This document shows positions 6,232-8,466 of a stretch of DNA of 11,761 bases, one piece after another; position 1 is the stretch's first letter; each line of letters begins with the position of its first letter. Source of the DNA: a virus (Duplodnaviria; Heunggongvirae; Uroviricota; Caudoviricetes); the IMG/VR virus record IMGVR_UViG_2630968911_000003, positions 1 through 11,761 of that record; one strand, 5' to 3'. Position numbers and translations under genes: made by a program. The notes beneath the pieces were generated by a model. It was not told the origin of the DNA and did no database searches. It saw nothing but the letters and a program-made list of their open reading frames with translations.

Positions 6232-6809
6232 GAAATCGTCCCGAGAACCGCCAGTTCATTTTTTGCAATGGAGATATTGTCCGCCGGGGCAAGCAACTGA
6301 TGGCTGTATTCCCCGTTCGCACCGGAAATCGCCTCACTGATACGCGATACCTTCAGTTCTCCCTGCGGATAACCATCACGCAGCAGGAACGAACGCAACT
6401 CTGCGGTGATGGCAGCCCGTATTTCCGGTGTGTCCGGCGTCACGCGGATATGAAAATCCACTTTATGCGCCACCGGCCTGAATACATACAAATCAGAGCC
6501 TGCCACCGGGGCCAGTGGCTCAATGTGTTGTCTTGCCACCGTTTCCGTTGATTCTTCCGGAATGGGATTAATCAGGTCACTGCTGGCAATCATCACACCG
6601 ACAGTTCCCGTTCCCATCCAGTGACGGTATGTCCATGCGCGGGTAATGCCGGGCACTTCTTTAGCCCAGACGACATAGTCCACGTCAGCCCCGCCCTGCG
6701 GCGTCCAGTAATACCGCTCAATGATGCGGGCGCGCCACGTTTCCAGATCTTCAGTATCAAATCCGCCTGTCAGGGTGTCAGCCACACCGGAAGACGGCAG
6801 ACCATTCAA
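6222..6809 (-). pseudogene. baseplate J-like protein, N-terminally truncated fragment
   Basis: The ORF track start is a TTG at 6809 that overlaps the terminase stop (6778-6780), so there is no room for a native N-terminus or ribosome-binding site. Its position upstream of the gpI-like gene fits the baseplate J slot, but the family call is from recollection only. Confidence 0.5.
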
Positions 6810-8466
6810 CCGCCATAATCAGCGCAACTGCACCGTCAATTTTGTTTTCCGCCTGCTCTTTGACGGGTTTAACCACATCATCGTTACCCGGAATGGTTTT
6901 GCCGACCACATTGCCGATACACCAGGTCATGATGGGATTGCCATCATGATGAAAGCGCCCCGATTCAATTGCCGCTTCCAGCTCTTTCATCGGGTCGGAC
7001 ATGTTGGTGTAGTTCTGAATGATAGTGACGGGATTCAGGTCTTCATCAGCAAGGTCATGTGACAACCCGGTCGCCCCGAAGGGGTCGATGGGTGACTCAC
7101 TGACCGGGCTGATTTTGTTCGCCGCTTTGGCCTCCTCGAGGATGTAGCGATAATCCACCTCCGCACCATCGGTAACGGTCAGAACGCCCATTTCCACCCA
7201 TTTCTGAAAGCGTTCGGCTGTCCGGCGATCTTCATTTTTCTCGACGCTGTACACCGTGTCATACGGTACCCAGAAGCGCGGAGCCACACTGTAGTAATGC
7301 GTTTTACCGTCAATCTCGCGGGTATAAAGTCGCGCCATGCTGTTCATATCCAGCTTACGCGCCAGGTCAAAGGCCAGAATGCACGGCTGCCCCTCGAACT
7401 GCTCAAGGGTCAGTGATTTATCCTCGCAGCTCTGCCAGCTCACCAGGTTGAAATACGCCGAACGCGCCGACACCCAGATATTGAGGTGTTTTGTTTTAAA
7501 GACGTTTGCCAGACGGGCGTTATTTTTCGCACGCTGCTGCTGACTTAACAAAAATTCGCGATAAACCGACACGCCAATATTTGGATTGGCTTTTTCCAGC
7601 ACCTGCGGGTCGGTCCAGTCATCGCCTTCGTCAACGGTATAGATGATCCCGAACAGTTCATCGTTGGGTACCGAACCGTTGAGCATCTCGATAACTTCCC
7701 GCCGCTTGTCGTAGCACGGCCCCTCAATGTTGTACCCGGCGGTGGTGATGGCCCACATCAGTGGCTGACGTCGCGCGCCCATCCCGGTAAGCATCGTGGT
7801 ATAAAGCGCATCGGTGGCGTGCTCGTGATATTCATCCACCACGGCACAGTGGGGTGATGAACCATCACCGGGGTTACCGATCAGCGGTTCAAACCGCGCG
7901 CCATCCTCCGGACGGTTCATGTTTGAGGCGTTAACCTCAATCCCGAACGCTTCCGTCAGCATGGGTGTGCGTTTACACATCAGTCGCGCCGGGCGAAAGA
8001 CTTCCCACGCCTGTTTCTCTGTCGTGGCACCGGAATACACTTCCGCGCCAAACTCGTTATCACAGGCAAAACAATACAGGGCAACACCGGCAGAGATTGC
8101 CGATTTGCCGTTCTTACGGGAGATTTCGGTATACACCTCCCTGAAGCGGCGCAGCCGGGAGCCTTTATTGACCCAGCCAAACGCACAGCAGATCACAAAG
8201 AGCTGCCACGGTTCCAGCGTGATGGGCATCCTCTTGAATGCCCACTCCCCCTTGGTGTGTGGCAACAGCTGAATAAATTTCGCGGCCCGTTCAGCCAGGT
8301 CCTTGTCGAAGCGGTAACGAAACGACTTACTTTTTTCCGCCATCAGGTCATCAAGATGGCGCTGGCAGGCCTGAATCACAAACTGGCAGGCCACAATCTT
8401 TCCGCGCACGACATCACGGGCATACTGATTGGCAGCATTTACGTTGGGGTAAGATTTCCGGCTCAT
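6778..8466 (-). CDS. terL: phage terminase large subunit
   Basis: A 562-aa ORF with ATPase and nuclease regions and the characteristic C-terminal '[11 protein letters not shown]' motif. Its start forms an ATGA overlap with the small-subunit stop. The last ~9 residues ('[10 protein letters not shown]') may derive from the deletion junction. Confidence 0.9.

Follow-up and report, generated by a model that had tools for sequence, protein, structure and literature searches.

The site at which a large terminase gene runs directly into a baseplate gene in this DNA is very probably a deletion scar, left when one recent, illegitimate event took about 14 kb out of the late operon of an SfV/SfI/e14-type prophage. 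The whole stretch that we analysed, a short draft contig of 11,761 bp, is referred to here as the window. On its minus strand lies a large terminase (TerL) open reading frame (ORF) of 562 amino acids, whose stop at 6778–6780 is overlapped, as a first-pass annotation of the same DNA had described, by a 195-amino-acid ORF opening with TTG at 6809. That annotation also gave the succession of a baseplate-module gene, a “gpI-like” gene and a tail fibre, and Pfam agreed with this order (Baseplate_J, Phage_Mu_Gp48 and a gp53-like fibre); the “gpI-like” gene is ymfQ, YmfQ being the Mu-type counterpart of P2 gpI. Portal, protease, capsid, sheath, tube and tape-measure genes are missing between TerL and the baseplate gene J, as had been stated and as the ORFs and Pfam matches bear out, and none was found among the ORFs anywhere in the window.

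Gene order in the window and in intact relatives

The features of the window are as follows, in the direction of the late operon.

10284..11499, minus strand: holin, lysozyme and Rz with embedded Rz1 (lysis cassette, opening the same late operon)
Between the lysis cassette and the HNH gene, plus strand: iss/bor gene
9083..9433, minus strand: intact HNH endonuclease gene of the packaging module (Pfam, RefSeq)
9007..9008, minus strand: position of cos (termini of the linear SfI genome) in the gap between HNH and TerS; homology passes unbroken from SfI 38389 to SfI 1
8463..8966, minus strand: intact small terminase gene, TerS (P27 / Terminase_4 family; Pfam, RefSeq)
6778..8466, minus strand: truncated TerL ORF, 562 aa (ORF list, Pfam, RefSeq)
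6807..6808, minus strand: TerL/J deletion junction (blastn and junction alignments against SfI, K-12 e14, FDAARGOS_1277 and TUM9868)
6222..6809, minus strand: fragment ORF of the baseplate J / Mu gp47 family, 195 aa (ORF list, Pfam, RefSeq)
5647..6231, minus strand: intact baseplate wedge gene of the YmfQ / Mu gp48 family (Phage_Mu_Gp48; Pfam, WP_000383548.1)
5005..5643, minus strand: gp53-like tail fibre, constant N-terminal part plus the currently expressed C-terminal part
4566..5003, minus strand: tail-fibre assembly gene (Caudo_TAP; Pfam)
3506..5359: Pin-type invertible segment with alternative fibre C-termini and assembly genes
2890..3480, minus strand: pinE-type serine invertase (Resolvase and HTH_7 domains; PGAP name pinE)

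Window positions 6807–9454 are collinear with SfI 37944–38389 followed by SfI 1–2201 (89–98% identity), positions 5341–6808 match SfI 15766–17233 (96.3% identity), and positions 1–124 match the SfI arm adjoining the attP core. SfI packages its DNA by a cos mechanism (PMC3636060). The ymfQ gene overlaps the 3′ end of J by 10 nt, the same overlap as in intact phages. The invertible segment sits between the fibre genes and the invertase, is edged by 19-nt inverted repeats (3506–3524 and 5341–5359), and lies in the window in the orientation opposite to that in the complete genome of Escherichia coli G4/9; judged from this flip between two assemblies of the same strain, pin appears to be active. 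In G4/9 the paoD/yagP side bounds the region at one end, and int, tRNA-Thr and proA lie at the other. The element thus has the HNH-cos-TerS-TerL module, the gp47 (J), gp48 (YmfQ) and fibre genes and the thrW/proA site of the SfV/SfI/e14 group, and it is a lambdoid myovirus prophage of that type at thrW in E. coli G4/9. It does not have the full head and tail gene set of an intact, inducible, virion-forming prophage; SfI 2202–15767 is absent.

In SfI (NC_027339), TerL (542–2275, 577 aa) is directly followed by a ymfR-like gene and the portal gene, and then come the head and Mu-like tail genes, J (15294–16352, 352 aa) and gp48 (16343–16927). TerL has 577 and J has 352 residues in SfI and likewise in the intact E. 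coli prophages of FDAARGOS_1277 and TUM9868, with a complete gene set of 13.6–14.2 kb between them, so that the internal deletion and defective prophage proposed in the first-pass annotation are upheld. SfI, SfV, SfII, SfIV and the intact E. coli prophages share with the window element the order HNH, cos, TerS, TerL and then J, gp48 and fibre, nucleotide identities of 96–99.9%, and integration at thrW adjoining proA (PMC3636060), but they are complete, possessing the 13.6–14.2 kb of morphogenesis genes that it lacks. Such SfV/SfI-type morphogenesis regions are common in E. coli; at least 80% of SfI 1–17300 is covered in 824 of 5,426 complete genomes.

The closest intact relative on the TerL side is the FDAARGOS_1277 prophage, which occupies the same chromosomal site (thrW; tRNA-Thr/proA) and is complete between TerL and J, with everything from ymfR and the portal gene through J in place. 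The 3′ half of its TerL gene differs from the window by one mismatch in 1,063 nt (99.9% identity), and it encodes exactly the same TerS and HNH proteins as G4/9. On the J side it is the complete TUM9868 prophage, with 99.6% identity across J, ymfQ and the fibre and a YmfQ protein that equals WP_000383548.1 of the window residue for residue. Among the best matches listed, no single intact prophage reached at least 99% on both flanks. Because the best relatives of the TerL side and the J side differ, the immediate ancestor must have been a mosaic, a point against the single-deletion reading.

The junction and the two truncated genes

We mapped the junction, which had been placed in advance at 6800–6830, to window positions 6808–6807 on SfI and the intact E. 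coli prophages. By blastn, homology to TerL ends at SfI 2201 (window 6807) and homology to J starts at SfI 15766 (window 6808), with an overlap of 2 nt; the dinucleotide in question, TG at window 6808–6807, is the sole sequence common to both parents at the junction, and is what the suggested search for microhomology turned up. Marking the breakpoint by a slash, the TerL parent reads ...ATGGCGGTTG/GCAGAG (short form ...GCGGTTG/GCAGAG) and the J parent reads ...ACGCCGGTG/AATGGTC; the short form of the latter, ...GCCGGTG/AATGG, is identical in K-12 e14, SfI and TUM9868. The window reads ...ATGGCGGTTGAATGGTC across the junction, TerL codon 553/554 being joined to J codon 158/159 at the shared TG. 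A microhomology of 2 nt barely exceeds chance and says little about mechanism. Neither repeats nor IS elements flank the scar: a search of 6500–7100 returned only short chance matches.

The missing block measures 13,566 bp in SfI (2202–15767), 14,063 bp in FDAARGOS_1277 and 14,157 bp in TUM9868. Lost with it are ymfR, the portal, prohead protease and major capsid genes, connectors, sheath, tube, tape measure, the DNA-circulation gene, three to four baseplate genes and the first 158 codons of J.

Residues 1–553 of the 577-residue native TerL remain, and 545 of these 553 are identical to SfI TerL 1–553. They are followed by exactly nine unrelated residues, EWSAVFRCG (554–562; window 6807–6781), as against the approximately nine noted previously; these are J DNA read out of frame, and the stop is TGA at 6780–6778. 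They stand in place of the last 24 native residues, GRAMLYEKEDTLSDHIESYGIRSL, and the native C-terminus is therefore absent. Both Pfam domains are present, with TerL_ATPase at residues 86–256 and TerL_nuclease at 268–557 (PF03354 and PF20441). In intact TerL the nuclease profile reaches residue 558; what the clipped protein lacks is thus the extreme end of this domain and some 19 residues of tail behind it. Aligned with HK97 TerL, whose structure is solved (6Z6D), the protein matches up to the conserved IDGxVAxxMxVG helix, and it is at this helix that the cut falls. In other phages the C-terminal tail of TerL binds the portal of the prohead, as in lambda gpA. RefSeq PGAP tags the gene as a pseudogene, “incomplete; missing C-terminus”.

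The J fragment comprises native residues 159–352 of 352, from window position 6806 onwards (the ORF aligns with SfI J 158–352), which is the C-terminal 55% of the protein. Its Baseplate_J match covers profile positions 94–255 of 255 only, whereas intact J matches positions 2–255 over residues 69–317; the first 93 profile positions are gone, and the fragment is N-terminally truncated. PGAP tags it as a pseudogene too, “incomplete; missing N-terminus”. With 24 residues missing from TerL and 158 from J, the two ORFs are not the complete, natural neighbours that would have spoken against a deletion. The TTG at 6809–6807, taken in the first-pass annotation as the start of the ORF, straddles the junction: TerL DNA supplied its first T, and the TG after it is the dinucleotide common to both parents. 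It is a product of the junction and not a native start. An alternative start for J, GTG, is found at 6785–6783, 3 nt ahead of the TerL stop.

The 562- and 195-aa ORFs overlap by 32 nt, and the J frame is shifted relative to that of TerL. The description of the terminase as fused directly to the baseplate fragment therefore holds for the DNA and not for the product, as no TerL-J fusion protein can be made with J out of frame.

We rejected the idea that the junction had created a promoter or a terminator: no minus-strand terminator was found at the scar, and promoter-like sites, including a weak match at 6781–6753, were as numerous as expected from shuffled sequence. A hairpin or fragile site was likewise discarded, as 81-nt single-stranded DNA folds around five parental breakpoints gave z scores of 0.41, 0.09, 0.13, −1.78 and −1.42, with nothing unusual among them.

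Origin of the scar and comparison with e14

The defective prophage e14 of E. coli K-12, reportedly described in 2004 by Mehta, Casjens and Krishnaswamy (BMC Microbiol 4:4), had been mentioned in the first-pass annotation as a case of similar decay. The kinship proved closer than a resemblance: e14, whose order is ymfN-ymfR-beeE′::′jayE-ymfQ-stfE-tfaE-pinE, belongs to the same phage lineage (96–97% nucleotide identity over the 3′ part of TerL, J, ymfQ and the N-terminus of the fibre) and carries an analogous but different scar. In both elements the head and tail genes are deleted and the N-terminus of J is cut, while ymfQ, the fibre and pin with its invertible segment are kept, and in both the scar microhomology is merely 2–4 nt. 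In e14, however, portal codon ~136 is joined to J (SfI 2876/15565, GGTA), whereas in the window TerL codon 553 is joined to J (2201/15766, TG), without ymfR and without the 136-codon portal stub of the e14-type allele. Further, e14 lies in icd with an N-terminally truncated TerL, whereas the window element lies at thrW and keeps TerL 1–553; the window element has HNH, TerS and a DLP12-like lysis cassette as additional differences; and the defence cargo adjoining pin is mcrA in e14 and PD-T4-3 in the window element.

Five scars of this kind are listed below, with left/right breakpoints as SfI positions and the microhomology.

K-12 e14: 2876/15565, GGTA; ymfR and portal stub kept
G4/9 (window): 2201/15766, TG; TerL directly onto J
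VTB96816v: 2992/15779, 4 nt; element at ssrA
160-11H1: 2123/15929, 2 nt; element adjoins paoD/yagP, like G4/9
G5: 2876/16231, GTA; element adjoins paoD/yagP, like G4/9

Elements of the e14 type are common (about 8 of 60 rows taken at even spacing from 2,170 matching records), and apart from this common allele each scar (four of the five) was a singleton in composite-query surveys of 5,426 complete genomes. K-12 e14 and G5 share their exact left breakpoint (...GTGTGGTA/) and differ in the right one; even so, 11 differences in 601 nt separate their portal stubs.

The proposed course of events is a microhomology-mediated, homology-independent deletion that would have joined TerL to J at the shared TG, by slippage during replication or by joining of ends at these 2 nt. 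In sequence the late operon remains continuous through lysis, HNH, cos, TerS, TerL′, ′J, ymfQ and fibre, and it probably does so in transcription too. Both TerL′ and ′J would be non-functional remnants, and the element would be unable to build a virion.

That the junction is an assembly artefact, or the natural order of two complete genes, is an explanation to which we give almost no credence. Apart from the window being a short draft contig and as such potentially chimeric, we found nothing in its favour. The window is contig JPKJ01000053.1, from the 2014 draft of E. coli G4/9 (GCA_000768415.1), where the exact 562-aa product is recorded; this protein, in an unchanged gene neighbourhood, is also encoded in the closed, long-read genome of this strain (CP060073.1; human faeces, Germany; 2020) and in two independent read assemblies, the Logan assemblies of runs SRR12376427 and SRR5336261. 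These four assemblies carry the junction and account for all five contigs with the exact product, and among the 5,426 complete E. coli genomes the junction is found in G4/9 only. Because window 5600–8500 is 100% identical to CP060073.1, the junction is no assembly artefact, and a natural order is contradicted by the intact relatives, where each gene is longer and some 14 kb lies between the two. On a two-step origin, an e14-type scar (2876/15565) would have formed first, followed by an 876-bp deletion across it that took the 3′ end of TerL, ymfR, the portal stub and a further 201 nt of J. Geometrically this is possible, since the window breakpoints are nested inside those of the e14 type (2201 < 2876, 15766 > 15565); e14-type elements are common, and the breakpoints of G5 (2876/16231) and 160-11H1 (2123/15929) nest likewise. 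The flanks speak against such descent from the e14 allele, which we consider unlikely: the TerL flank is 99.9% identical to the intact prophage at the same site and 97.3% to K-12 e14, G5 and VTB96816v, for the J flank the figures are 99.6% against an intact prophage and 96.2% against e14, and the best e14-type matches reach only 98.0–98.2%. An independent, recent, single deletion is favoured because the flanks are 99.6–99.9% identical to intact prophages and only 96–97% identical, on both sides, to the e14-type and other deleted variants.

Second deletion and the retained packaging genes

A second deletion lies elsewhere in the G4/9 prophage, beyond the window; it joins SfI 26141 to 32709 (gam to the 3′ end of P) and removed the immunity and replication region, with N, cI, cro, cII, pR, O and most of P. 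The prophage also carries three copies of IS3. After these losses, Q-dependent late transcription would be without its normal trigger. Helper-dependent cutting at cos may still occur, given the intact cos, HNH and TerS. Work on HK97 TerL supports HNH-stimulated cos cleavage and is silent on the C-terminal tail of TerL (PMC9410871).

The first-pass annotation had suggested that the retained terminase and HNH could serve to mobilise satellites or act in packaging of the gene-transfer-agent type. In a broader form, the element would be a domesticated module under selection, keeping cos, HNH, TerS and TerL for helper-dependent (satellite- or GTA-like) packaging, while its ymfQ-fibre-pin cassette would be a store for SfV-like phages resident in the same cell. 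In favour of this, five different junctions in five strains have taken out the stretch between the TerL end or portal and J, and ymfQ, fibre and pin survive in every one; cos, HNH and TerS are intact, pin appears active in that its segment flipped between two assemblies, and the defence gene PD-T4-3 on the element could explain its retention by the host. However, the scar variants were found with queries that demanded TerL and J close together, and because of this requirement their clustering is largely ascertainment; an apparent TerL-to-sheath variant in AR_0119 represents another class of deletion, and four of the five junctions are singletons. TerL, moreover, is clipped just past the conserved IDG...MAV helix, loses its C-terminal tail and is a RefSeq pseudogene. 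The second deletion counts against a satellite or GTA-like packaging role, as do the three IS3 copies, and flanks so nearly identical to live prophages leave no time for a signature of selection. We therefore regard maintenance by selection as highly improbable. The TerL flank is 1 nt in 1,063 away from an intact prophage, which argues that TerL is retained because the deletion is young; on the reading of a recent single deletion, the other retained genes would likewise persist through youth and without selection.

Like PICI and capsid-forming PICI (cf-PICI) satellites, the window element has HNH, TerS, TerL and cos without a full set of virion genes. It differs from them in being a near-identical copy of a full phage (96–99.9% identity to complete phages) with a fresh hole, not a small autonomous island devoid of lysis and tail genes; it keeps lysis and fibre genes, its TerL is damaged, and it has no replication or derepression module. 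The capsid, portal and tail tube genes of a gene transfer agent are absent.

That the interval from the TerL end or portal start to mid-J is a recurrent deletion target in SfV/e14-type prophages seems unlikely to us, and we make no hotspot claim: two composite-query surveys gave four singletons besides e14, and the design of the search favours such a class. What suggests such a target is the loss of this interval in five different scars from five E. coli lineages, two of which (K-12 e14 and G5) have one and the same left breakpoint. If it were true, it would mean a fragile site or selection for virion-less elements, and the latter, if selected, would keep lysis, the cos-terminase module, the fibre-pin cassette and a slot for defence genes.

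The scar in the window is a new, private allele of the well-known e14-type decay of prophages, an ordinary phenomenon, and its novelty is low, both genes being already flagged as pseudogenes by RefSeq/PGAP. For annotators, the 562-aa “terminase” and 195-aa “baseplate J” calls should be read as pseudogene remnants, with little import beyond annotation. The several independent scars over one interval could serve the study of prophage decay, given an unbiased survey. For the Symbioflor-type strain G4/9, the finding means that its thrW prophage should be incapable of making particles, and it would provide a base-exact and dated example of how a live SfV-type phage becomes an e14-like remnant when a single deletion at a 2-nt microhomology takes out about 14 kb.

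Attachment-side end, packaging set and lysis region

The first 124 nt of the window (1-124) match positions 21106-21229 of the intact Shigella phage SfI, the arm directly beside the attP core; the end of the contig therefore falls at the prophage/thrW-type attachment repeat. Beyond this arm, an insertion sequence (IS) fragment and a regulatory gene hold the place (220-1241) at which SfI, in contrast, carries its gtr serotype-conversion genes. The position of cos, at which the linear SfI genome begins and ends, maps in the window between the genes for the HNH endonuclease and the small terminase. 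With cos so flanked, the remnant retains an apparently intact cos-HNH-small terminase set. Two lipoprotein genes lie within or beside the lysis cassette.

Features of the attachment-side, packaging and lysis regions (window coordinates)
220-447: IS integrase-core fragment, adjoining the attP-side arm
489-1241: AraC-family regulator, near the attP-side arm
9007-9008: position of cos (termini of linear SfI DNA)
9959-10252, + strand: iss/bor serum-resistance lipoprotein gene, flanked by the lysis cassette and HNH, which are encoded on the other strand
10343-10525, - strand: Rz1-type lipoprotein ORF of 60 aa, nested inside Rz

Outside the window, the stretch that separates the G4/9 element from thrW contains a second integrase together with P22-like remnants, and three IS3 copies lie within or adjoin the element.

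Other deletions in this phage type

In both K-12 e14 and strain G5, which carry portal::J scars, the left breakpoint in the portal gene is identical, at SfI 2876 (the retained sequence ending ...GTGTGGTA), whereas the right breakpoints in the baseplate gene J differ, at SfI 15565 in K-12 e14 and SfI 16231 in G5. Between the two portal stubs there are 11 differences in 601 nt. The common left breakpoint may reflect either a local hotspot or a second deletion whose starting point coincided exactly with the old scar.

Strain AR_0119 (NZ_CP021535.1) apparently represents a different deletion class of the same phage type. Only 18% of SfI 350-9729 is covered there, in three pieces, and in the annotation at the SfI match the terminase genes adjoin a C-terminal fragment of the tail sheath gene and the tube gene.

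The G4/9 prophage itself carries a second internal deletion of ~6.6 kb beyond the window (~3093-3111 of L013, a stretch of the complete genome, CP060073.1, in which the site is at ~3608105-3608115). This deletion fuses gam to the final 126 nt of P, joining SfI 26141 to 32709 with alignments that overlap by 11 nt, and the genes lost through it are kil, cIII, N, rex, cI, cro, cII and O.

Invertible fibre segment and apparent defence-gene slot around pin

The invertase gene pin is accompanied by an invertible fibre segment and by a GIY-YIG gene.

Features around pin (window coordinates)
2056-2829, + strand: GIY-YIG ('LEM-3-like') gene, adjoining pin
3506-5359: pin-invertible fibre segment of 1,854 bp, bounded by 19-nt inverted repeats

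The repeats, AAACGTTGGTTTGGGAGAA and TTCTCCCAAACCAAGGTTT, enclose a segment that lies one way round in the window (2014 draft of G4/9) and the other way round in the complete genome of this strain from 2020. The two orientations point either to an invertase that is still active or to a mixed culture.

Over its full length, the GIY-YIG gene matches PD-T4-3, an anti-phage defence protein in PADLOC (E 2.4e-140). In K-12 e14 the corresponding slot is instead occupied by mcrA, and in VTB96816v, a strain with a deleted variant of the same phage type, a type II restriction-modification pair is found there alongside the same GIY-YIG gene as in the window. The position beside pin looks like a variable slot for defence genes, and this slot may be why such prophage remnants persist.
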